Source: an uncultured Acidimicrobiia bacterium
Lineage (GTDB): Bacteria > Acidobacteriota > Terriglobia > Versatilivoradales > Versatilivoraceae
Assembly: GCA_963786955.1 (NCBI GenBank)
Contig: CAWBAT010000009.1
Location: forward strand, 128,001-192,000
Direction: 5' to 3'
DNA: 64,000 bases
Part shown: one piece after another, positions 6,773 through 20,722 of the stretch
Layout: each line of letters opens with the position of its first letter
Position numbering within the stretch: position 1 is the first letter of the stretch
Position numbers and translations under genes: made by a program
The notes under the pieces: generated by a model
What the model was told of the DNA's origin: nothing
Database searches by the model: none
What the model saw: the letters and a program-made list of their open reading frames with translations, nothing else

Positions 6773-8317
6773 TTAGTAGTTTGTGATCCTGCCGGCTGTT
6801 TCCGGGAAACTCATGCTCTCCACAAACGTTGCGTGAAAATTCTGATCGGAGGCCAGCGAGAGGTGACGACTCATCTTGCGGACCTGTTCCATAGTCGTGT
6901 TGAAGAGGGTCTTGGAGAGGAGCATCATCTTTGCGCCACGAAGTGCGGTGTTTCCGGCCGAGTGGATCTTCCCCGGACTCACCTCGAGCAGACCGATTCG
7001 GCGGGCACTCTCCCGGTTGACATAGTTCCCGAAAGCTCCTGCCAGGTGGAGTTTGTGCAGATCATTGAGCTTCTTCCCAAACTGATCCAGCAAGATCCGA
7101 AGGCCCGCCGCTATTGCGCCTTTTGCCAGCTGTAGCTCCCGGATGTCTCCCTGACTCAGGCTTACGGGAGAAAGGAGCTTCCACTCTTTCGACCCGTCGC
7201 TGAAGCGTCCGTTGCTTTGAAGGAACCCGAGATTCAACCCAGCTGCCGCGGCATCCACCAAGCCGCTCCCACAGATCCCTCGCGCGTGCCCTTCCCCGAG
7301 AACATGACAATGCAGCTTCCCGTTGCGCAGCGACACTCCGGTGATGGCCCCGGCCGAAGCCCGCATTCCCATTCGAATCCGGCCGGCCTCAAAGGCAGGT
7401 CCCGCCGCGGTCGATGCACAAATCAGACCGGAACGGTCGCCCACAACGATCTCCCCGTTAGTTCCAAGATCAGCCAGCGCGACCAATTCCGCGCTTTCGG
7501 CCATCCCCGTGGCAATGATCCCGGCCAGGACATCACTCCCCACAAAACCTCCCAGGCACGGAAGGAAACAGACTTTCGCGTCACCGCATCCAGTCCATTC
7601 GAGTTCCCGTGCCGTCAAGCGGATCAGGCCGTCGTTTTTGGGTTCAAACGGCACATGCGAGAGGGGCTCAACATCAATTCCACAAAAAAGGTGATGCATC
7701 ACCGTGTTTCCCACAATCATCACATGGCGCAGTCTTTCGGGTGAAAGGCGGGCCAGTCTGAAAGTCTCTTGGATCATTTCATGCAGACAATTGCGAATCT
7801 CGCGAGTCAACTTCCCATGGGTCACACTTCCCTCAGCGAGCGCAAACTCAATGCGGCTCATGACGTCCGCCCCGTGGGCAGCCTGAGGATTGAGTGCCGT
7901 CTGGACGGCTAAAACCTGCCCCGTAGTTAAATCGACCAACTGGGCAACCAGAGTAGTTGTCCCCAGATCGATGGCAATTCCAAGCCCTTCATCTGGTTCG
8001 AAATCAAACTGGGCATCGTCAGAGAGAATGGGAGTGTCCCACTGGGCAATCTCCAGTTCCAGCGGACCATCGACGCACCCCTGGCAAGCCAGACGCCAGC
8101 CGGCCGCGATTTCTTCTGGACTTAATATTTCTTCCATTTCCAGGGTCTTGGGGAGATTTCCTTCGAGGACACGAACGCGGCAGCCACGGCAAATACCCAC
8201 TCCGCCACAAGGAAACTCCACCCCATATTTGAATAGGATATCTTGCAGTGGAGTGCCCGGTGTGACTTCCAGACTCTCACCGAGGGGAGCTAGACGGATC
8301 TGAATCTTCTTTTGCAT
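6773..8317 (-). CDS. ASKHA-domain / 2Fe-2S reductive activator of corrinoid proteins (RACE/RamA-like, DUF4445)
   Basis: N-terminal CGGxGxCxxC...RLACQ ferredoxin; DLGTTT, GADVMSRI, DLGTNGE, AAGPAFE, GICGSG, LAGAFG. Confidence 0.93.
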   Translation of the reverse strand: MQKKIQIRLAPLGESLEVTPGTPLQDILFKYGVEFPCGGVGICRGCRVRVLEGNLPKTLEMEEILSPEEIAAGWRLACQGCVDGPLELEIAQWDTPILSDDAQFDFEPDEGLGIAIDLGTTTLVAQLVDLTTGQVLAVQTALNPQAAHGADVMSRIEFALAEGSVTHGKLTREIRNCLHEMIQETFRLARLSPERLRHVMIVGNTVMHHLFCGIDVEPLSHVPFEPKNDGLIRLTARELEWTGCGDAKVCFLPCLGGFVGSDVLAGIIATGMAESAELVALADLGTNGEIVVGDRSGLICASTAAGPAFEAGRIRMGMRASAGAITGVSLRNGKLHCHVLGEGHARGICGSGLVDAAAAGLNLGFLQSNGRFSDGSKEWKLLSPVSLSQGDIRELQLAKGAIAAGLRILLDQFGKKLNDLHKLHLAGAFGNYVNRESARRIGLLEVSPGKIHSAGNTALRGAKMMLLSKTLFNTTMEQVRKMSRHLSLASDQNFHATFVESMSFPETAGRITNY

Positions 8318-8422
8318 GGGTTAAGCGAGTTCAACTTTTCAGGGGCTAGCGGCAATTCAACGTCCGTCGCAGGAGAAATGGAGTAAACGTGGAAGACTGA
8401 ACAGGATATACAGACGCCGGGA

Positions 8423-9169
8423 TTACTCTTTACACTCTTCCAGCTCGATAATGTTTTCCTTATAGGAAGCCTTGATTCGGAAACCTTTGGGAACGACCAG
8501 GAAATCATTTTCCGGCCATTCCCCCGAAAGGAGCCGCTCAAACAGGCTCAAGTCTCCGCGAATTTTGTCAAATGTCCAACCCCGCTGTTTGGCTTCTTCT
8601 TGAGCCTGCTTTTCGAAATGGTCATCGGCTTCAATTCCAGTTTCGATAAACGTCAGCTGGCGGTAATGCTTCTGATATTCCGTAAATTGTTCATAGAGGA
8701 AACGCCCGTTATCTTCCCCATATTGTTCGATCAAGTCCTGCAAGTTGTAGTTGACCCCTTTCTTGGACATGACCCGATTGCTGACTTGCTCCAAATTTCC
8801 GCCTCGCTCAATCCATCCCGTCGAGCGAAAGTAGACTCCGGAATTGTTTTCGAAGTATTTCTGATAGTTTTGGCGGCTGCCCATGAGAAGAGTGATGCAA
8901 TCATGCGCTCGCGGAACAACGATCGGGAGCGTTCTGGCGGTAAGGCCTTGAATTCCATTGCCACAGAGCGCATACCCTAACAAGACGGCATCATATTGAC
9001 CCGGGTCGACCCGGTCGATCAATTCCTGCAACTTTTCCCGCATAGACTGCCCTCCCAGATCATGGAGTCCTTTGGAGCAAAACTCGACGTCAATCTGGTG
9101 TGGCGAGCGGGCCAAAGCTGCACACATCTCGCGAAAGACTACTTCACAGCTAATGAGTTTATATCGCAT
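8423..9169 (-). CDS. DUF1638 domain protein
   Basis: ISCEV, GLH, LGYALCGNG, PRAHDCITLL motifs; family commonly found in corrinoid clusters. Confidence 0.88.
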   Translation of the reverse strand: MRYKLISCEVVFREMCAALARSPHQIDVEFCSKGLHDLGGQSMREKLQELIDRVDPGQYDAVLLGYALCGNGIQGLTARTLPIVVPRAHDCITLLMGSRQNYQKYFENNSGVYFRSTGWIERGGNLEQVSNRVMSKKGVNYNLQDLIEQYGEDNGRFLYEQFTEYQKHYRQLTFIETGIEADDHFEKQAQEEAKQRGWTFDKIRGDLSLFERLLSGEWPENDFLVVPKGFRIKASYKENIIELEECKE

Positions 9170-9448
9170 GGATGGATTCTTCCGATTTGAAATCCTACCC
9201 CCGGTGTTGAACAAAAAATTGGCCTCGCAGAGTACAACGCTCTGGGGAGGAGACCAATCATGGAGCGCCAGCCTCTACGAGGCCTATTGAACTCGAAAGC
9301 GTGCTTTCCAGACTATCTAATCTTATATAAACGCAATGATAATATTATAAATCCGGCAGGGACCCCCAAGACATCGCCGTGAAGTCTTCTCAAGACTTCA
9401 CCCTGTGGCTACCGCCATGATCCAAGGGGGACCTTTCCCAATTCCCCT

Positions 9449-9560
9449 GAAGAGATCTGAAGAAATTGTAGCGGCGCTCTATGAGCGCCGACCAAACCAT
9501 TGAATTAAAAAGAACACGGCGGTCACAGGCCGCCGCTACAGCCGATTCTTTCACACCTTC
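9449..9560. mobile_element. MITE-like element (GAAG...CTTC ends) with REP-like core
   Basis: Ends GAAGAGATCTGAAGAAATT / ATTCTTTCACACCTTC; CCT on both flanks (9446-48, 9561-63); internal GTAGCGGCGCTC..GAGCGCCG and CGGCGG..CCGCCGCTAC hairpins. Confidence 0.55.
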
Positions 9561-9663
9561 CCTCCTGTTAAGGGGGAAGCAAATAGATCATCGTCTCTCC
9601 TTGCACAAGGGGGGACTTCAGGGGGTGGAGAATTATTAGTAAGCAACATTTAGTGCAACTGCT

Positions 9664-10293
9664 TTAGTTTGTCATGAAACTACGCGCAAGATTCACGGCC
9701 GATGCAGCATTTTCGCCATACCCATCCGCACCAATCTGGTCAGCAAAGTTTTGAGTGATGGGAGCACCGCCAATCAGGACTTTCACGCGATCTCGCACCC
9801 CAGCCTGCTTCAGGGCGTCGATCGTGGACTTCATGGAAGGCATTGTGACGGTCAAAAGTGCGGAAAGGCAAATCAAATTCGGATTCTGTTCTTTGACAAC
9901 TTCCACGAATTTCTCGGGAGCGACATCGGTGCCCAGATCGATCACCTCAAAACCTCCCCCTTCGAGCATGGAAGCTACCAGGTTTTTGCCGATGTCGTGC
10001 AAGTCGCCCTTCACGGTCCCGATCACCACCCGTCCCACCGGCTTGGAGCCTTGCGCTGCCAATCGGGGTCGAAGGATTTGCAAACATCCCTTCATAGCCC
10101 GCGCAGAAATCAACATTTCCGGAACAAAATACTCTTCACATTCGAATCGCTTTCCCACTTCAGCCATGGCCGGAATCATGAACTTCTGCACCAAGTCTAG
10201 GGGATCTGCATTCTCGGCAAGGGCCTTTTCAGTCGCGGCAATCGCTCTCTTTGCGTCTCCATCAATAATTGCATCGTAAACTTCTTTGGACAT
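9664..10293 (-). CDS. Corrinoid (cobalamin-binding) protein of a methyltransferase system
   Basis: GTVKGDLHDIGKNLV B12-binding motif, SALLT, IGGAP; N-terminal cap domain (FVPEMLISARAM). Confidence 0.96.
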   Translation of the reverse strand: MSKEVYDAIIDGDAKRAIAATEKALAENADPLDLVQKFMIPAMAEVGKRFECEEYFVPEMLISARAMKGCLQILRPRLAAQGSKPVGRVVIGTVKGDLHDIGKNLVASMLEGGGFEVIDLGTDVAPEKFVEVVKEQNPNLICLSALLTVTMPSMKSTIDALKQAGVRDRVKVLIGGAPITQNFADQIGADGYGENAASAVNLARSFMTN

Positions 10294-10432
10294 TATTGCC
10301 TCCTCTTCGATTCACTCAAGTGTTGACTGACGCCACTGCCCAAGAACAGATGGCCGACAATCGAATACGCAAACCCACAAAAAATCCCGGAGGGCTTCGA
10401 AGGATTCTACTTCAGCTTGGCCTCCGGGCTCT

Positions 10433-11692
10433 TCAATTTCTACCTCCAAATTCCTGAATGGCATTCAGCATCGCGACGATGTTTTCAACCGGTGTTCGGG
10501 CCTGGATATTGTGAATGGTATTAAAAATAAATCCGCCGTCTTTAGAAAACACACGGCATCGCTCTAGAACCTGATCACGAACTTCAGTTGGGGTCCCAAA
10601 AGGGAGCACCTTCTGCGTATCAACACCTCCACCCCAAAAGACAATCCGGTCGCCAAATTCTGCTTTGAGATTCTCCGCCGCCATGCCTGTTGCAGAACAC
10701 TGAACAGGATTGAGAATATCAAACCCGGCTTCAATCATGGACGGGATAAATCTTATCACGGACCCGCAGGAATGTTTGAAGGTTTTCCAGGTTGTGTTTT
10801 TGTGGATCCAGTCATTGACCCGTTTGTAGTATGGAAAATATAAATCACGAAAGGTGTCGACGGAACAAAAACTAGAGGTTTGCGTCCCAAAGTCAGTTCC
10901 GCAAATAAAAAGGACGTCGATCTTGTTTCCCACGATCGGAAAAATCTTTTCCAGATTTGCGATGGCGTAATCACATTGTTTGGAAAAGACCGTATGAATG
11001 TAATCCTGCCGGGTGCGGGTCGATACGTACCATTCGGCGATGTCCCGGATGCCCTTGGGATGCTTGAGAAAAGGGGCTGGGACTAAGGCAATATCGCCGA
11101 ACCCCGTCCCCCCAAAAGTCGCAACTACGGCTCGATTTGTGCCTTCCAGCTCTGCGATCGAACGTCGAAGGTATTCCAGGTCCTTCTCGGTGATCGGTCC
11201 GAATTCCTCTAAGTTGTCTTCAGGATCGAGTTTATCTTCATCAAATGGTTCTTGCCTGACAATGCTATCAAAGAAATAACCGTCCTTCGGCATCCGGCCG
11301 CTTGGCGGCGCAGAAGTATCCCCTTCGGGATAAATCAGGATGTCACCTTTTTCGTCCGTCGTGGTCCGAAAATCCTTGGAAACCAAAACCTCAAGACCTT
11401 GCGGCGTCTTCCACGGTCTCCAATCGTAATTCGCAAACCCGAAAATCGTCTTTACCGGATAGACCGCGTCCGTATCAATACCCATGACATTCTTCAAATC
11501 ATCTTCAACCAATCCCAGCATCTGATAGGGTTCGTGAACCTTCACGGCGTGTTCGTCCAGCCCGTAATATTTGCGAAGCTCAGAGACGCAGCTGACATGG
11601 ATTCCCGTCGTCAACGTGCTTCCAAAATCTATCGGTATGCGGTCAGGCGCTCGATGGGACAAGCTGGCAACGACACGCTCTTTACTGTTCAT
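10433..11692 (-). CDS. Uroporphyrinogen decarboxylase (UroD/MtaA-CmuA) family methyltransferase
   Basis: DFGTQ, FKHSCG, DILNPVQ, FWGGGVDTQ, GGFIFNTIHNIQ. Confidence 0.9.
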   Translation of the reverse strand: MNSKERVVASLSHRAPDRIPIDFGSTLTTGIHVSCVSELRKYYGLDEHAVKVHEPYQMLGLVEDDLKNVMGIDTDAVYPVKTIFGFANYDWRPWKTPQGLEVLVSKDFRTTTDEKGDILIYPEGDTSAPPSGRMPKDGYFFDSIVRQEPFDEDKLDPEDNLEEFGPITEKDLEYLRRSIAELEGTNRAVVATFGGTGFGDIALVPAPFLKHPKGIRDIAEWYVSTRTRQDYIHTVFSKQCDYAIANLEKIFPIVGNKIDVLFICGTDFGTQTSSFCSVDTFRDLYFPYYKRVNDWIHKNTTWKTFKHSCGSVIRFIPSMIEAGFDILNPVQCSATGMAAENLKAEFGDRIVFWGGGVDTQKVLPFGTPTEVRDQVLERCRVFSKDGGFIFNTIHNIQARTPVENIVAMLNAIQEFGGRN

Positions 11693-12127
11693 GACTTCAT
11701 CCTCGGAGAATGATTCAAAACGAAGTCATTTACGAACCAATCTGCCGGATAGAAATGATTTGTTGAATGTTCCCGAAATCAAGACCTATGCATACTCCAA
11801 CCTGTTGAAAAATTGCACATGAGCTTCCAAAGCTACGGCTGGGCTCCATAATTTTATCTTCTTATTATTCAACTGTTTAAGTCATTAGACGCCGAGAGAC
11901 AAAGAAAACAACTGCGTCATTTCACGCTCTAGTGAGTGGTATCGAGCACCTTGCATGAATGAAACTCGAACGATACCTCTCCTGGTATTGAGTGGGCCAC
12001 TCCTTTGGGATCGAGCTCTGCGAGACCGGAATCCCCGACAGGCCAAGAGGCCTGTCGCTACCAATCGGCGTCGCTAAGCTCCGCCCTCCAACCAAATTCT
12101 GAGGTTGAGGGATGAAAACTGGAATTT

Positions 12128-13432
12128 CTACGGCTTTACTAATGACCCATCGATTTGTCGGACATTCATCCAGCCGGGCTCTGTTGGTGGATACGGTATT
12201 GGATACTTTTTGGCCATTTCTTCGTCAAGATCGATCCCAAGCCCTGGCTTATCGTTACCGTAGAGATAACCTCCTTTGATCTCTGCCGTGCCCGGCATCA
12301 TTTCATAGACCAATGGGGGAAAATGGTTTTCCTCCTGGATGCCAAAACTGGGAATGTTCATATCGATATGATAGGCGGCTAACTGGTTTACGGGGTCATT
12401 GTCTCCCCCTTCCTGCCAGGCTGTGCGAACTCCAAATGCTTCGCAAAGAGTCGCCACTTTTTTGGTAGGTGTGATTCCACCGATGGCTGAGACCCGGCAC
12501 CGAATGAAATCAATCAATCGTTCAGAGATGAGGGTGGTCCATTCCATTGGATGCGTAAATAACTCACCCATCGCCATTGGGGTGGTAGTCACTTTGCGAA
12601 TCAGTCGGAACCATTCGATCTGTTCCGGAGGCAGAATGTCTTCCACAAAAAACAATCGATAGGGCTCCATTTGTTTCGCAAACTCTCTGGCCACGGTCGG
12701 AGTCAGATGTTCATGAACATCGTGGAGCAATTTGACATCCCACCCCAGTTGAGTCCGAAGATGCGCGAACAATTTGGGGATTGTCTCCAGGTAAATGTCC
12801 TCGTCAAAGCCGGGTCCGGCGTAACCACCGGCGACACGACTGCCCATCCCTTCGGGCACAAATCCACCGCCGCCATAGCCCCCCATCTGGGCGCGAACAT
12901 GGCGATAGCCTTCCGCCATATACTTTCGAACATTGTCCTCCACTTCTTTGGGATCGCGACCGTCTGCATGCGCGTAGCACGGAACGGCATCACGCACTTT
13001 TCCTCCAAGGAGTTCGTACACAGGCATCCCGGCTCTCTTGCCTTTGATATCCCACAAAGCCATATCGAGCCCGCTCAAGACATTGTTCGTCACGGCGCTG
13101 TTCCGCCAAATCGAATGGACGTTCGTTTCCTGCCACAGTTCTTCAATGCTATCCACCCTTTTTCCAATCCAAAAAGGCGCCATATGCTTTCGAATGGATT
13201 CGACCACGGCAAAGGCCTGGTAGGCATGGCTCGCGGAACCGATGCCATAAAGCCCCGGCTCGCTGGTAATGATTTTGACGAAGATCCAGGGATAAAGTTT
13301 TCCAGGGCTAGTTGTCACGACTCGCACTTCTTTGATGAGCAAGGGAGGTAAACCGCGTGTCCGCTCAGCATAAAGTTCAGCCGCCGCCAGCGGCATAGCC
13401 AGTAGTCCTTTCAAAAGCTCTCGTCGCTGCAT
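12128..13432 (-). CDS. Enolase-superfamily dehydratase (RspA/mannonate dehydratase-like) with Tat-like signal
   Basis: DMALWDIKGK, LLHDVHE, FFVED, AMGELF, GGITP; start MQRRELLKG with GGAGG RBS. Confidence 0.88.
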   Translation of the reverse strand: MQRRELLKGLLAMPLAAAELYAERTRGLPPLLIKEVRVVTTSPGKLYPWIFVKIITSEPGLYGIGSASHAYQAFAVVESIRKHMAPFWIGKRVDSIEELWQETNVHSIWRNSAVTNNVLSGLDMALWDIKGKRAGMPVYELLGGKVRDAVPCYAHADGRDPKEVEDNVRKYMAEGYRHVRAQMGGYGGGGFVPEGMGSRVAGGYAGPGFDEDIYLETIPKLFAHLRTQLGWDVKLLHDVHEHLTPTVAREFAKQMEPYRLFFVEDILPPEQIEWFRLIRKVTTTPMAMGELFTHPMEWTTLISERLIDFIRCRVSAIGGITPTKKVATLCEAFGVRTAWQEGGDNDPVNQLAAYHIDMNIPSFGIQEENHFPPLVYEMMPGTAEIKGGYLYGNDKPGLGIDLDEEMAKKYPIPYPPTEPGWMNVRQIDGSLVKP

Positions 13433-13595
13433 GGAACCTCCTTTGCTTGTTGGTGCGACTGAAAAATTCAATAGCCAGTAAACTATCGCCCAGCAGCTGT
13501 ATCGCGGACCCTGTTTCTTGGTGTCCACGGCTTATCTTAGGGTAGAATCGCCGTGGGTTCTCCAAGTGATTCTGATGGACAACTCTGGGTATTGA

Positions 13596-17544: not shown

Positions 17545-18060
17545 TCATCGAAGGCCGATACGCGCGTCAATAAGTGTTTTCTGTTTTTTGCGAGCCGGCA
17601 AAAGGGAAAGTCTTCTAAGCAAGTCATTTTCTTTCTTGATGGCGGGAGAGCGCAATAAGGAAAGTAATAATAGCTCGAGCAATTCTTGAACTTTCTTGTC
17701 ACTGAACTGGATGAGGAAGTTGGAGAGCTGCATGAGCCGGATTTGCCTTGCCGAGTACCCCTCCACGTGAAACTTTTGTCCTTTGCGCCCTGTCCCGTAG
17801 ATAAGATCCGCCACACACCGTCCACTCAAGCTCACTGGACATTGTCCCTGAAAACGCTTCTGTTCATCATAGCCAAAAAAGTCAACCAGATTGACTTGGA
17901 GAGCCTCAGCGATCTTGTGGAGAGTAGTGAATGAGGGTTCAATGCGGTTATTCTCAATCCTGGACAAATAAGTAACAGCCAGCCCGCTTTTGCGGGATAT
18001 CTCTAGCTGTGTCAGATTCCTGGATTGTCGGATTTCACAAATTCGATTGCCTAAGCTCAT
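17545..18060 (-). CDS. XRE-family HTH regulator with C-terminal CPxSxSGxC domain
   Basis: LGNRICEIRQSRNLTQLEISRKSGLAVTYLSRIENNRIEPSFTTLHKIAEALQV is a Cro/C1 HTH; RBS AGGAGA before ATG 18060. Confidence 0.9.
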   Translation of the reverse strand: MSLGNRICEIRQSRNLTQLEISRKSGLAVTYLSRIENNRIEPSFTTLHKIAEALQVNLVDFFGYDEQKRFQGQCPVSLSGRCVADLIYGTGRKGQKFHVEGYSARQIRLMQLSNFLIQFSDKKVQELLELLLLSLLRSPAIKKENDLLRRLSLLPARKKQKTLIDARIGLR

Positions 18061-18121
18061 GAAACTCTCCTGTAATACACGGGGGCATGGCACGGCATTC
18101 GATCGAATGCGTGTCCCCTAC

Positions 18122-19197
18122 TTAGATGAGGTGAATCGGAGAACGCTTGGCTGTAGAGCGCTTCAGGTGCAGTTGGTCAAAATAGGCTAGTGAGATGATC
18201 AGCAGGTGATGATGAAATAGGCTCTGTAGCGCGATCCAGCTGTTCTGCAATTGCTCTTTATCCGGAAGAACTTGGAGTAACGTGGCTATCAAACTCTTTT
18301 CATAAAGGTGCACGGCATGAAGTATCAGAGAAAAGGGAACCTCAGCGGTCGCTAAATTGCGGCCCGCATCCGTCACCATCTGGTCATATTTATCCAGGCG
18401 CCCATCCTCGAAGGCAAAGATCGGGGTGTTATCCCAAGAGCTTCAATCGGTTTGCGGATCGAGTCGGTATATCTTCCACCAAATTCCGACACTTGATCAA
18501 GCCAGCGCATTTGCATTTCTGCCAGATGGGGTCTAAGAGGCTGGAGAGCTAGAGCGATCGCCTCTTTCTCCCCAACTGAAAACCCGCTCATGATATTCTC
18601 GTGTGAAATTGGCAAATCAATGGCCCCAAAGTCCTGCTGGACCGGGCCGACCTCCAAGGTGTCGATTTTGGCTGACTCCCAGAGAATTTCAATATCCGGA
18701 ATTCTGCGCCGCGAAGAGCTCGCCTGCCCTTCTTTCAAGTAGGAGATCGGATCCTCCAGGTGGCGAATGATCGGCACGATGTCCACGGGTTGGCCGGCCA
18801 CTAAGTCTTTGACCAGTTGAACGCCCATGGAAGCCGCGAGGCGGCCTGTCAAAAAATCCTTCGCCTCATAGTGAATAATATAGATACTGCCGTCGGGATC
18901 AGCCTCTGACTTCCTCCTCGTCCATCCCCGATAAACACGTCGAGCGCGATCTGCCAAGTGCTCTAGTTCAAGCAGAACATGCTCAAGAACATGAGCAAAG
19001 TCTGTCCCTTTTCGCATTTCTTTGACGAACCCGCCGTCCTCACCAGCTATACACCGATGCGACATCAGACTCGGGATTAATTGAATCAGTCTCTCAATGA
19101 AGCTCGGGAGGTCCTTGGTGGTCAAAGAGGCAAGATTCCCGACGTCCACTTCCACTTCGTAAATGGAAATGCGGGAGTTGACGATTTGGAGCGTCAT
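18122..19197 (-). CDS. Cyanophycin-synthetase N-domain-like Zn-peptidase fused to a globin-like sensor domain (split by a frameshift near 18410-18440)
   Basis: HRC-x19-HVLEH-VLLELE and GWTR motifs; helical domain starting GFSVGEKEAIALALQPLRPHLAEM continues in the next frame as IFAFEDGRLDKYDQMVTDAGRNLATAEVPF...LAYFDQ (ORFs 18373..19197 and 18122..18379). Confidence 0.72.
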
Positions 19198-19210
19198 GAA
19201 TGTCTGAAGG

Positions 19211-19627
19211 TGACGTCTTCTTCCCTGTAAATGATTGATGCGCTTTCAAAAGACTCGAAAGCGGTTATGTTGAATCCCTACAATCTAGAAACCCGGGGAG
19301 TTGAAACCAATTGAGGGGGACTAGTTCAGCGCCTCGCAACAACTTCTTTCTCTAAAGGCTGCAGATTAAAGAGTATCCTTCCGAATCTTCTCAGCCAGAA
19401 CGGCGAGATAGTCCTTGACCAGCAAACGGGCATCCTCAATGTCAAATGGCTTGCCTTTCGCTCTCTCCAGAGTCTTGGTGATCATTGGATCAGACCACAG
19501 GTAGGGATTGTTCAAAAGGCCGATGAACGACTCCTTGGTGTGTTCAAACACCGGTTTGAAATACTCAGGGATTGTAACCATGATCTCTTCCTCCTGTTTC
19601 TAAACGCTGCCAGGGAAGAAGACGTCA
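19211..19627. repeat. Perfect 17-bp inverted repeat bracketing the 71-aa ORF
   Basis: TGACGTCTTCTTCCCTG (19211-19227) and CAGGGAAGAAGACGTCA (19611-19627) are exact reverse complements. Confidence 0.9.
19366..19581 (-). CDS. Small hypothetical protein (71 aa)
   Basis: Strong RBS CAGGAGGAAG; protein-like amphipathic sequence; no family recognised. Confidence 0.8.
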   Translation of the reverse strand: MVTIPEYFKPVFEHTKESFIGLLNNPYLWSDPMITKTLERAKGKPFDIEDARLLVKDYLAVLAEKIRKDTL

Positions 19628-19646
19628 TTCAAATTCTTTAATAACA

Positions 19647-19675
19647 ATTCCGATCCAACTTCATCTATCTGTCAA
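19647..19675 (-). promoter_or_regulatory. Possible sigma70 promoter for the small ORF / peptidase / XRE unit
   Basis: Perfect TTGACA (19670-19675 on minus strand); the -10 at 17-bp spacing (CGGAAT) is weak. Confidence 0.35.
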
Positions 19676-19849
19676 GGGGAATTGCACTCTTTTTAAATAT
19701 TAACATATGTGTAAAGACCTCATCTTAGGGCGCCCCCTCCCGCAATAGAGGGATTCAGGGGTTTACCCCCTTTTTTTTGCCTTGCTGGTGAAATACGTTT
19801 TAAGTATTGTGCTGTTATTCTGAAAAGATTCCTTGTGGAGAAATAGAAG

Positions 19850-20722
19850 ATGAAGACATCAGCAAAAACGTGGAACACAAATTGGCTCTTTTCTCACGAC
19901 TTCGCCTGGCGGCGCTGCATTGGCAACGCAAGCTTTATTGTGGGAGTCATTTCTCTGGCTATTCTCGTATCCCCGATAATGCCCCTGAACACTAACGCTG
20001 GGACAGGGAAGACAAAACTCAAGCTCGAGCCTGGATTTAAGTCGCTTTTCGACGGGAAAGATCTCAAGGGATGGCACAAGAATCCAACTAAAATCCATCA
20101 TGGGACCGGAGGGCTGTGGACCGTTGAAGATGGAGCGATTCTCGGCCAACAGGATCCTCCGGGCAGCGGAAACGGAGGGATACTGCTAACAAATAAAAAG
20201 TATGGAAACTTTGAAGTCATCTTTGAGGTCAACCCCACCTGGGGAATGGATTCTGGATTTTTCTTGCGCAGTACCGAGATGGGGCAGTGCTACCAAATTA
20301 TGGTGGATTACTACGCAAACGGAAACGTAGGAGAGATTTACCGTGAAAGACTGGACGGGATGACCAACCGCACCTTCATGCTCGAAGGAGTCTTTGCTGA
20401 TGAATTGAAAACCCTGATTGGAGTGAACGCGATCCCAGCTCCTAAGAACGACAAAGGTCAAGGGGGGCCACCCTTTATCAAGCTTGCAGACTGGCCTCAC
20501 ATTTGGAAAGTCAACGAATGGAACACGGTTCGCGCTCGGGTCGAAGGGAACCCGCCAAACATCGTCACCTATATCAACGGGACACTCATCACCAAATACA
20601 CCAGCGAAAAGATGTTCGAAGGGATCCTGGAAGACCGCGGCTACCTGGCATTACAAGTTCATGGAGGAGATCCAGGCAAAAAACAGGTTCGATATCGCAA
20701 TATTCGAATCAAGGAACTTTAG
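19850..20722 (+). CDS. DUF1080 family protein
   Basis: SLFDGKDLKGW, GGILLT, DSGFFLR, EWNTVR, GYLALQVHGG, RYRNIRIKEL. Confidence 0.9.
   Translation: MKTSAKTWNTNWLFSHDFAWRRCIGNASFIVGVISLAILVSPIMPLNTNAGTGKTKLKLEPGFKSLFDGKDLKGWHKNPTKIHHGTGGLWTVEDGAILGQQDPPGSGNGGILLTNKKYGNFEVIFEVNPTWGMDSGFFLRSTEMGQCYQIMVDYYANGNVGEIYRERLDGMTNRTFMLEGVFADELKTLIGVNAIPAPKNDKGQGGPPFIKLADWPHIWKVNEWNTVRARVEGNPPNIVTYINGTLITKYTSEKMFEGILEDRGYLALQVHGGDPGKKQVRYRNIRIKEL

Follow-up and report, generated by a model that had tools for sequence, protein, structure and literature searches.

Within the 64,000-nt stretch of DNA analysed here (the window; contig CAWBAT010000009.1, positions 128,001 to 192,000), a small gene on the minus strand is bracketed by a perfect inverted repeat. 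The locus raises the question of whether the two arms act as RNA, by pairing across the message, or as DNA, as sites for a recombinase or a repressor. The arms at 19211-19227 (TGACGTCTTCTTCCCTG) and 19611-19627 are exact reverse complements (100% over 17 nt) with 383 nt between them, and this enclosed segment contains both a 71-aa ORF and its ribosome-binding site (RBS). The first-pass annotation that drew attention to the repeat had described it in these terms and had placed the second arm 13 nt before the start codon of the next gene, all of which agrees with our reading. The elements of the locus, in the order in which the minus strand is read, are as follows.

19611-19627, minus strand: 5' arm of the proposed helix, UGACGUCUUCUUCCCUG, pyrimidine-rich and anti-Shine-Dalgarno-like (anti-SD-like), ending 29 nt before the ATG of the small ORF
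19581-19596, minus strand: ribosome-binding region of the small ORF, with AGGAGG at 19590-19595; similar to the 3' arm and able to form a local leader hairpin with the 5' arm
19366-19581, minus strand: small ORF of 71 aa, without a Pfam or NCBIfam family, predicted to form three helices
19211-19227, minus strand: 3' arm of the proposed helix, CAGGGAAGAAGACGUCA, purine-rich and SD-like, ending 13 nt before the ATG of the next gene (19197)
18373-19197, minus strand: next gene, with a cyanophycin-synthase-like N-terminal domain followed by a sensor-globin-like domain; frameshifted, continuing in ORF 18122-18379
17545-18093, minus strand: XRE-type helix-turn-helix regulator, the third gene of the cluster, also found downstream in the related locus L014

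A search of the window for the 17-mer with up to three mismatches revealed three matches against 0.19 expected, a count that none of 100 shuffles reached. Throughout the 5.65-Mb genome the 17-mer is present at the two arms only, accompanied by two further matches with two mismatches each, which is about the chance level by our own estimate. Unconstrained duplex folding of the upstream stretch against the spacer yielded long, meaningless duplexes from which the shuffles were not separated; a contiguous-run test was used instead, in which the longest unbroken pairing between upstream stretch and spacer is compared with that in dinucleotide shuffles. At the locus of the studied genome (G000), 17 contiguous pairs join the 80-nt upstream stretch to the 168-nt spacer, and 0 of 1000 shuffles did as well. 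An interspersed repeat or mobile element of the MITE type was considered as the origin of the arms and rejected, as the 17-mer is confined to the two arms, the small ORF is single-copy and the locus is syntenic in relatives. Comparison with Rfam 15 gave a sole match, to suhB/mmgR on the plus strand (19728-19785), which scores 15.6 bits (E = 2.5) where the gathering score is 41 and lies outside the element.

The pairing had also been proposed to extend outwards, with bulges, up to the AUG of the next gene. The complementary bases for such an extension (GAAUUUGAA with UUCAGACAUUC) are indeed present in the sequence, but the pairing is weak (-5.4 kcal/mol, a value that 8 of 100 shuffles attain) and is not kept among relatives, since L008 shows a different register and the value for L009 was matched by 62 of 100 shuffles. 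This outer part was dropped from the model for its lack of conservation.

Relatives of the locus (L008, L009, L011, L012, L014 and L015) were collected by searching genomes of the same order, where 3 of 31 gave a match, and a sample of the phylum, where 3 of 401 did, one of them marginal (G195, E 0.0099) and not counted as a relative. Searches in the family and in the class of genome G065 were positive in one of three genomes each, and overall only the genus and G065 were found. L010 proved to be a chance match (20 aa, E 1e-3) and L013 is without the 3' side, and the informative lineages are four only. At all seven loci with both flanks readable the arms are conserved, compensated or swapped for another complementary pair; complementarity in homologous loci, which the first-pass annotation had put forward as a check of RNA pairing, is thus borne out.

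The 5' arm is kept in L008, L011 and L012 and carries one C>U in L009, while the 3' arm is invariant in these four loci. In L009 (79% DNA identity) the spacer from the stop codon to the 3' arm has diverged strongly; over the 34 positions of the arms just the single C>U is seen, and a G.U pair is kept on the sense RNA. L014 (72% identical) displays one compensatory change, U-A to C-G, and retains GACGUC[C]UCUUC/GAAGA[G]GACGUC (12 bp), whereas in its inner helix CCCUG/CAGGG is replaced by GCGGAA/UUCCGC across a 2x3 internal loop. L015, which belongs to another class and whose small protein is 38% identical, has a different pair, CCCCCACAGC/GCUGUGGGGG, in the corresponding place. The contiguous-run test gave 0 of 1000 shuffles for L009; for L014 it gave 0 of 1000 with Watson-Crick pairs only and 45 of 1000 with G.U allowed, and for L015 it gave 4 of 1000 (10 Watson-Crick pairs) and 0 of 1000 (19 pairs with G.U). 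The distance from the end of the 5' arm to the ATG of the small ORF (ATG1) is almost constant, with 29, 30, 26 and 29-30 nt in G000, L009, L014 and L015, respectively. From the end of the 3' arm to the ATG of the next gene (ATG2) there are 13, 13 and 12 nt in G000, L009 and L014 and 82-90 nt in L015.

In alignment A3 of the arms, 95 of 95 cells pair, and the alignment contains the two-sided change of L014 as well as one C-G to U-G change. The outcome of the covariation check suggested earlier is no more than suggestive: there is one compensatory pair and pairing is complete, but the counts are without statistical power, as 75 of 500 shuffles reach them and 15 of the 17 pairs never vary. The asymmetry of G.U pairs is likewise mixed, with longer runs on the antisense than on the sense strand in G000 (19 vs 17) and L014 (14 vs 12) and the opposite only in L009 (17 vs 13) and L015 (19 contiguous pairs on the sense strand vs 10).

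Conservation of both arm sequences within the genus would be expected also of protein-binding sites. The arms could be two DNA operators bound by a single regulator, such as the XRE protein from two genes downstream; the regulator would occupy one site over the transcription start and another 400 bp downstream and repress by looping. The arms are nearly invariant across the genus while the adjoining non-coding DNA drifts, each contains the palindrome GACGTC, whose core persists into L014, the upstream arm overlaps the likely RNA start, and the XRE gene is conserved in the cluster in both G000 and L014. A 17-bp non-palindromic site that is present twice in inverted orientation would, however, be unusual for a dimeric HTH protein, and the motif is found nowhere else in the genome. 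In L014 the inner arms differ in sequence and yet keep their complementarity across an asymmetric internal loop, a predicted arrangement that fits RNA better than two protein sites. The complementary pair of L015 is unrelated, only 10 of its 19 pairs are Watson-Crick in DNA, and the one neighbour looked at there, a 215-aa ORF, is TetR-like by eye. We regard a pair of operators as quite unlikely. What is observed across the loci is complementarity, its conservation, one compensatory change and, in a distant relative, replacement by another complementary pair; judged by their sequences, the relatives favour RNA pairing.

The size range of known invertible DNA switches includes perfect 17-bp inverted repeats 383 bp apart, and the first-pass annotation had named as its alternative an inversion driven by a recombinase in trans, in which the arms would be recombination sites and the small gene would be flipped by phase variation. 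No joints or strand changes were seen in the contigs of two DNA and two RNA runs, a type of data from which rare variants are dropped, and the X1 DNA contig is colinear over 18300-19723. The seven assembled loci, which come from different samples, all show one orientation relative to both flanks. A scan of 18 proteins encoded in 6.7-34 kb of the window detected no recombinase family. The presumed promoter lies outside the segment, and the arms are non-identical in L009 and bulged in L014. An invertible segment is therefore extremely improbable, and we have abandoned this interpretation.

An RNA helix formed in cis would require both arms to be transcribed together, and the following features bear on the extent of the transcript.

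19647-19675, minus strand: presumed promoter region, with two conserved elements, TTGACA at 19670-19675 and the block AAGTTGGATCGGAAT at 19647-19661, and an atypical -10
19623-19624, minus strand: possible RNA 5' end, where contigs of two RNA libraries stop (X15 at 19624, X16 at 19623) and continue as adapter-like letters, 3-4 nt inside the 5' arm
19241-19263, minus strand: local 7-bp spacer hairpin CGCUUUC...GAAAGCG, without a U-run and not called terminator-like; not kept in L009

A sigma-70 scan gave no passing site at the presumed promoter region. Its counterpart in L014 reads TTGACA-17-TAGATT at 42-70, and the arm there begins at 79, which corresponds to about +1 to +3. The contig ends at 19623-19624 give only a hint of the RNA 5' end, as they are contigs and not raw reads. 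The RNA-run contigs at the locus span 19254-19624 and 19263-19623 only, and the uncovered stretches of the contig data (18300-19217, including the 3' arm, and beyond 19650) are not readable as absence. A terminator scan between the two genes found no terminator-like site in the window, in L014 or in L015, from which we infer that both arms are probably located on one transcript. The 3' arm of L015 is followed by a U-run that is absent from the other lineages. A long-range terminator in L015 was considered because of this U-run and rejected, as the scan finds none.

The complementarity would be equally compatible with pairing in trans. The RNA of the small ORF would then stop before the 3' arm, its free 5' arm would pair with separate transcripts that carry the 3' arm, and the message would double as a regulator of the neighbouring gene. 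The spacer hairpin lies between the ORF and the 3' arm, and in the genus the leader alone is predicted to fold the 5' arm onto its own RBS, which would provide a resting state. This hairpin is, however, not conserved in L009, no terminator-like site separates the ORF from the 3' arm, and minus strand 19197-19366 contains no promoter-like site for a separate downstream transcript. Pairing in cis would moreover be kinetically favoured if both arms are on one RNA. We consider regulation in trans very unlikely.

We think it probable that the inverted repeat reflects, at the DNA level, a functional long-range RNA helix that forms in cis in the minus-strand message. The transcript of the small ORF would begin with the pyrimidine-rich, anti-SD-like arm; its partner, the purine-rich and SD-like arm, follows some 400 nt later in the spacer that precedes the sensor gene, and their pairing would close the whole small cistron into a loop. 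Fold-back pairing of this kind had been suggested from the start and remains the best reading of the locus. Folding of the minus strand, also proposed at that time, recovered the helix in each of three folds, in the MFE as well as the centroid structure, with a mean pair probability of 0.87-0.999. The fold energies of the whole region are ordinary, with z = -1.62 (7 of 100 shuffles as good), -1.81 (5 of 100) and +1.08 (86 of 100).

The purpose of such a helix may be stability, processing or ribosome-site access. With the 5' end locked in a duplex, the message may be protected or may acquire a double-stranded processing site. The perfect duplex measures 17 bp, its outer extension is weak and unconserved, the possible 5' end lies, according to the contigs, 3-4 bp inside it, and no 3' end was seen; RNase III stems comprise about two helical turns and are cut on both strands in a staggered manner. 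Within the genus the helix would also pull the 5' arm off a competing hairpin with the small ORF's own RBS and would bury positions -30 to -14 of the next gene. Roughly half of the weight that we give to the cis helix falls on control of stability or processing, as in hbs, as its main purpose, and the remainder on ribosome access.

Concerning the next gene, the helix had been thought to hide its initiation region, and masking of its RBS region by the 5' end, with repression of the downstream sensor gene, would be a different use of a real pairing. In G000 the presence of the 5' arm lowers the predicted unpaired fraction of -30 to -14 from 0.39 to 0.02, the purine-rich 3' arm ends within 13 nt of ATG2 in G000, L009 and L014, and the 3' arm of L014 contains an AGAGGA placed 7 nt ahead of the in-frame ATG with which the longest ORF begins. 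Positions -13 to -1 and the AUG, however, are predicted to be open with the helix in G000 (0.97 unpaired); in G000, L008 and L009 the -13 to -1 stretch stays or becomes more open (0.91-1.0 unpaired), with about 0.57 for the first 16 nt counted from the AUG. Some 18 nt separate the end of the purine run from the AUG, too many for a usual SD, and the outer extension towards the AUG is unconserved. Accessibility at ATG2 of L015 is unchanged by the helix, and because the 3' arm is 82-90 nt away there, the shared function cannot consist in masking the next gene. The earlier claim is supported only in part, by the more distant stretch and the L014 motif but not by the start codon and its immediate surroundings, and we judge repression by masking to be unlikely.

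At the small ORF, the leader hairpin of 5' arm and RBS has a predicted energy of -16.9 kcal/mol, matched by 3 of 200 shuffles. Only in the genus does the 5' arm pair with its own RBS beyond chance (3 and 9 of 200 shuffles, vs 55 of 200 in L014 and 86 of 200 in L015). The 5' arm might accordingly serve in the genus as a toggling anti-RBS that couples the small ORF and the sensor gene, a hok-like delayed activation within a signalling operon, to which we would give a small chance. During synthesis the 5' arm would close the small-ORF RBS, using 14 of its 17 nt and pairing up to the A of the AUG. The 3' arm, a near-copy of this RBS 400 nt downstream and beside the sensor start, would offer a perfect match and capture the 5' arm once transcribed. 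Translation of the small protein would then be licensed only on the full-length bicistronic RNA, and access of ribosomes or nucleases at the sensor start would be coupled reciprocally; a double-strand nuclease might possibly excise a panhandle-closed small mRNA.

To our knowledge, long-range pairing of 5' and 3' regions has been proven for only a few bacterial mRNAs (hbs, icaR, hok), every one of which belongs to well-studied Firmicutes or to enterobacterial plasmids. Of the known classes, a helix from 5' end to spacer like that of hbs, icaR or hok, a rare but known bacterial control of message stability or translation, most likely describes the putative element. The complementarity between 5' UTR and post-stop stretch is extended and beyond chance, as expected of the hbs and icaR type, with 0 of 1000 shuffles in G000 and corresponding results in L009, L014 and L015. 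In the hbs mRNA of Bacillus subtilis, a 14-bp interaction of 5' and 3' UTR was proven by compensatory mutation and is described as modulating ribonuclease cleavage of the leader and 3' decay (Braun, Durand and Condon 2017, PMC5737220). In both systems the message is about 400 nt long and carries a short ORF with a strong SD as well as a fully complementary stretch in 5' UTR and post-stop region, of 14 nt in hbs and of 17 nt here (12+6 in L014), here known from sequence alone. The 3' element of hbs, in contrast, is located just before the terminator of a monocistronic message, whereas here there is no terminator-like site and the 3' arm abuts the start of the next gene. The 5' arm is apparently at the extreme 5' end here and downstream of leader hairpins in hbs, and the host here is an uncultured acidobacterial lineage with unstudied RNases.

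The icaR mRNA of Staphylococcus aureus, in which pairing of 3' UTR and SD is reported to make an RNase III substrate (Ruiz de los Mozos et al. 2013, PMC3868564), shares an anti-SD-like pyrimidine motif that pairs intramolecularly with a purine-rich SD-type sequence hundreds of nt apart, and the same proposed outcomes, blocked initiation and a double-stranded RNase III substrate. The polarity is reversed, however: the anti-SD of icaR (UCCCCUG) lies in the 3' UTR and masks its own SD, whereas here the 5' end carries the pyrimidine-rich arm and the purine-rich one lies downstream beside the start of another gene, so that self-masking of the icaR type is not seen. The hok mRNA, with its tac/fbi fold-back stem (PMC9841398), likewise pairs the 5' and 3' regions of a small-ORF message of about 400 nt and closes the molecule, and alternative pairings of its 5' element decide the opening of the RBS, as the 5' arm in this genus can pair with its own RBS or with the 3' arm. 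The partner arm here is in an intercistronic spacer and not at a processed 3' end. Messages of the hok type encode a small hydrophobic toxin and have an antisense RNA partner. The 71-aa product, in contrast, has no family match and shows no sign of a toxin, being rich in charged residues on direct reading of its sequence, and neither an antisense RNA gene nor an overlapping reading frame was seen; the opposite strand has about as many promoter-like sites as chance gives (3 found vs 2.4 expected). A toxin mRNA of the hok type is thus not indicated.

A 2025 preprint on B. subtilis describes pyrimidine-rich, aSD-like sequences that pair with purine-rich ribosome-binding sites over several hundred nt in vivo and alter decay and initiation, and characterises such long-range pairings as generally harmful and depleted from genes (Gill et al. 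2025, PMC12697547). The pairing here is, in contrast, conserved and by implication put to use. Its occurrence in uncultured Acidobacteriota would make the device phylogenetically broad, and the example would be one that is rebuilt with a different sequence in a second class while its 5' arm is held at a fixed distance from the start codon. Such elements would be recognisable from sequence by a perfect inverted repeat bracketing a small gene.

The locus would also flag an uncharacterised three-gene signalling cluster, composed of the 71-aa helical protein, a protein with a cyanophycin-synthetase N-domain and a sensor-globin-like part, and an XRE regulator, as a unit that may be wired at the RNA level. 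The second gene had been called a peptidase; the only domain assigned to it by Pfam and NCBIfam is the cyanophycin-synthase-like N-terminal one, and we do not retain the name. Its frameshift is a feature of the present assembly, in which reading continues in the ORF given above. A literature search found no paper joining 'globin-coupled sensor' with 'cyanophycin synthetase'. The structural model of the 71-aa product has a low pLDDT of 69 for its three predicted helices. Its gene is real but rare, with nine relatives in the database.

The first-pass annotation had described a perfect 17-bp inverted repeat around a 71-aa gene, and this description held. Read on the minus-strand RNA, the 5' arm lies at 19611-19627 and the 3' arm at 19211-19227 (TGACGTCTTCTTCCCTG); the two are exactly complementary and 383 nt separate them. 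The 17-mer has only two exact sites in the whole 5.65-Mb assembly, namely the arms themselves, and two more genomic sites with 2 mismatches are at about chance level by our own estimate. At up to 3 mismatches, the window contains 3 matches compared to 0.19 expected, a count reached in 0/100 shuffles. Between the 80-nt stretch that precedes the small ORF and the 168-nt spacer after it, 17 contiguous pairs can form, which none of 1000 dinucleotide shuffles matched (shuffle maximum 12). Uniqueness in the genome, the excess in the window and the shuffle result therefore show that the repeat is real and not due to chance, and the uniqueness speaks against a repeat family. The genes relevant here are all on the minus strand:

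19366-19581, minus strand: small ORF of 71 aa, its ATG preceded by a strong AGGAGG at 8 nt
18373-19197, minus strand: next gene, with a cyanophycin-synthase-like N-terminal domain (PF18921, 2.5e-25)
17545-18093, minus strand: third gene, an XRE-type regulator, also found downstream in L014, a 72%-identical relative

The product of the small ORF matched no Pfam or NCBIfam family, and structure prediction gave three helices, with low confidence (pLDDT 69). A search of 5.8 billion proteins revealed nine relatives, among them one labelled as a protein of a Terriglobia MAG and another labelled Tectomicrobia. The gene is rare across the genomes sampled: it was found in 3 of the 41 nearest genomes (window's genus only), 3/31 genomes of the order, 3/401 of the phylum sample and one of three genomes in the class of G065, the genome of another class that carries locus L015. 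Of the three matches in the phylum sample, the one in G195 (E 0.0099) is marginal and was not taken for a relative. Collection scans added the same-genus loci L008, L009, L011 and L012 (100% protein identity for L011 and L012) as well as L013 and L014 (72%), while L010 was discarded as a chance match. L008 and L009 look like the two congeners found among the nearest genomes; their public labels disagree (one Terriglobia, the other Acidimicrobiia), and one label is probably wrong. L013 lacks the downstream side and was left out of the two-flank comparison. Both flanks were readable in seven loci: the window's own genome (G000), L011, L012, L008, L009, L014 and L015. The arms of L011, L012 and L008 are identical to those of G000 and add little, leaving L009, L014 and L015 as informative lineages.

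In all seven loci, part of the 5' flank is complementary at long range to part of the spacer. L009 has 79% DNA identity over the locus, with a mostly unalignable spacer between stop codon and 3' arm; its arms differ at 1 of 34 positions, a C>U change in the 5' arm after which the sense RNA can still pair there, as G.U. The L014 arms (GACGTCCTCTTC/GAAGAGGACGTC) form 12 perfect pairs, with one U-A pair of G000 changed to C-G and, across a 2x3 internal loop, an inner helix of GCGGAA/UUCCGC in place of CCCUG/CAGGG. In L015, where the small protein is 38% identical, arms of unrelated sequence (CCCCCACAGC/GCTGTGGGGG) form 19 contiguous pairs on the sense strand when G.U is allowed, versus 10 on the antisense strand. 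Shuffles equalled the contiguous pairing in 0/1000 cases for L009, in 0/1000 (Watson-Crick only) or 45/1000 (G.U allowed) for L014, and in 4/1000 (Watson-Crick) or 0/1000 (G.U) for L015. In an alignment of the arms, 95/95 cells pair, with one pair altered on both sides, one altered on one side and 15/17 invariant; 75/500 shuffles did equally well, so this alignment has no statistical power. The 5' arm ends 29 (G000), 30 (L009), 26 (L014) and 29-30 nt (L015) before the small ORF's ATG, and the 3' arm 13, 13, 12 and 82-90 nt, respectively, before that of the next gene. Amid the otherwise diverged spacer, a motif at 19272-19280 (minus strand: UAGGGAUUC) persists in L009 and, in part, in L014; its complement, AAUCCCU, lies in codons 4-6 of the small ORF.

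On this evidence, we lean towards the arms forming a functional cis RNA helix, and hold any single purpose of it with lower confidence. The arms might instead be protein sites on the DNA, as their near-invariance within the genus and the GACGTC core retained into L014 would suggest. Counting for RNA are the asymmetric internal loop of L014, the L015 arms that are unrelated yet complementary, with half of their pairs possible only as sense-strand G.U, the G.U pair of L009 and the constant spacing between the 5' arm and the start codon. The antisense strand permits more pairs in G000 (19 vs 17) and L014 (14 vs 12), which makes the G.U asymmetry mixed. The invertible segment that had been proposed as an alternative found no backing: aligned contigs contained no inversion joints, one DNA contig was colinear over 18300-19723, all 7/7 loci had a single orientation, no recombinase family was detected among 18 proteins scanned from 6.7-34 kb, and the presumed promoter is outside the segment.

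Folding of G000, L014 and L015 placed the RNA helix in both the MFE and the centroid structure, and for RNAs that carry both arms the predicted mean pair probability was 0.87-0.999. The duplex energies were -30.7 (G000), -27.8 (L009), -20.7 (12-bp core of L014) and -30.9 kcal/mol (L015); whole-region fold energies were not unusual (z = -1.62 for G000, -1.81 for L014 and +1.08 for L015). No Rfam family matches the element. The suggested masking of the next gene's start found partial support: with the helix, positions -30 to -14 in G000 are predicted to be buried (0.02 unpaired) whereas -13 to -1 are open (0.97), and the bulged outer extension proposed to reach its AUG proved weak and not conserved. 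In L014 the 3' arm includes an AGAGGA that precedes an in-frame ATG by 7 nt, and in L015 the 3' arm is far from the next gene's start; what the helix would do to the next gene differs between lineages.

A single feature is shared by every lineage: pairing of the 5' arm with sequence beyond the stop codon, which would close the small cistron in a loop. The ribosome-binding site of the cistron itself, located 26-30 nt past the arm, would stay outside the helix. The helix could thus control the fate of the message, either because a duplexed 5' end is protected or because the duplex is a processing site. We favour this purpose from the arrangement, which resembles that of hbs. Among known systems, the closest are hbs, icaR and the hok tac/fbi stem. 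[quoted passage not shown] The hok stem likewise closes a small-ORF message of ~400 nt, but hok has a toxin and an antisense RNA, neither of which was seen at the present locus (PMC9841398). Anti-Shine-Dalgarno-like sequences are described to pair with ribosome-binding sites across hundreds of nucleotides in vivo (preprint, PMC12697547).

Within the genus, the ribosome-binding region of the small ORF itself (CAGGAGGAAGAGAUCA) closely copies the 3' arm. When the leader was folded alone, this region paired with the 5' arm over 14 of its 17 nt, up to the A of the AUG (-16.9 kcal/mol in G000; 3/200 shuffles as good, 9/200 in L009). Such pairing was not seen in L014 (55/200) or L015 (86/200). This local pairing in the genus would allow a hok-like switch, a bolder reading that we rank below the main one.

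In L014, positions 42-70 hold a good sigma-70-type site (TTGACA-17-TAGATT); the arm there starts at 79, at about +1 to +3. The homologous TTGACA is conserved in G000 at 19670-19675, the -10 position reads CGGAAT, and no site there passed a sigma-70 scan. The surrounding block AAGTTGGATCGGAAT (19647-19661, minus strand), at the expected -10 place after TTGACA, is invariant in five genus loci amid varying surroundings; this points to an unusual promoter or to a site for a regulator. Contigs from two groundwater RNA libraries (X15 and X16; two coded studies, possibly one campaign) cover 19254-19624 and 19263-19623, and the letters directly after 19624 and 19623 are what we take to be Illumina adapter. 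This hints at RNA ends within the 5' arm, 3-4 nt from its edge, which contigs are unable to prove; such an end could mark the start of transcription or, should transcription begin near 19640, arise by processing. No terminator-like site was detected between the small ORF and the next gene in the window, L014 or L015, so co-transcription of both genes is plausible. Another X16 contig, which differs at 24 of 210 nt and comes from a relative further removed, matches the small ORF and is unlike the window directly after the stop codon (19364), with a purine-rich stretch and then ATGATG on the sense strand, which hints at a variant locus with a much shorter spacer.

The next gene had been labelled a peptidase but is not one; Pfam and NCBIfam give only the cyanophycin-synthase-like domain. 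Its product has 358-359 aa in relatives. Residues ~200-350 of the L012 358-aa protein model resemble sensor globins, namely AfGcHK and the globin-coupled sensors of Geobacter and Bordetella (TM 0.6-0.7 on the target); this helical domain of the downstream protein (18122-19197, minus strand) has an invariant histidine. A literature search combining 'globin-coupled sensor' with 'cyanophycin synthetase' found no paper. The L015 downstream protein (L015 664-2103) has a response-regulator receiver domain fused at its end. In the window, a C-run near 18422 is one C shorter than in L012, L008 and L009, and the resulting frameshift splits the 358-aa protein into ORFs of 274 and 85 aa, the frame resuming in ORF 18122-18379 (region 18373-18430, minus strand). 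The break may stem from an error in the assembly, or the gene may truly be a pseudogene; a DNA contig of run X1 carries the extra base absent from the assembly's C-run.

A corrinoid-methyltransferase-like set (RACo-type activase, DUF1638, B12-binding protein and URO-D-like protein) was found upstream at 6773-13528 (minus strand), and many glycoside hydrolases (GH38, GH141-like, GH106, melibiase) flank the cluster. A plus-strand terminator-like hairpin with a T-run is located at 19757-19771, upstream of a plus-strand gene at 19850, and a weak suhB/mmgR match (E 2.5) overlaps the hairpin. The DNA contigs of runs X1 and X2 depart from the window before 19792, hence the 19694-19800 stretch differs between strains.
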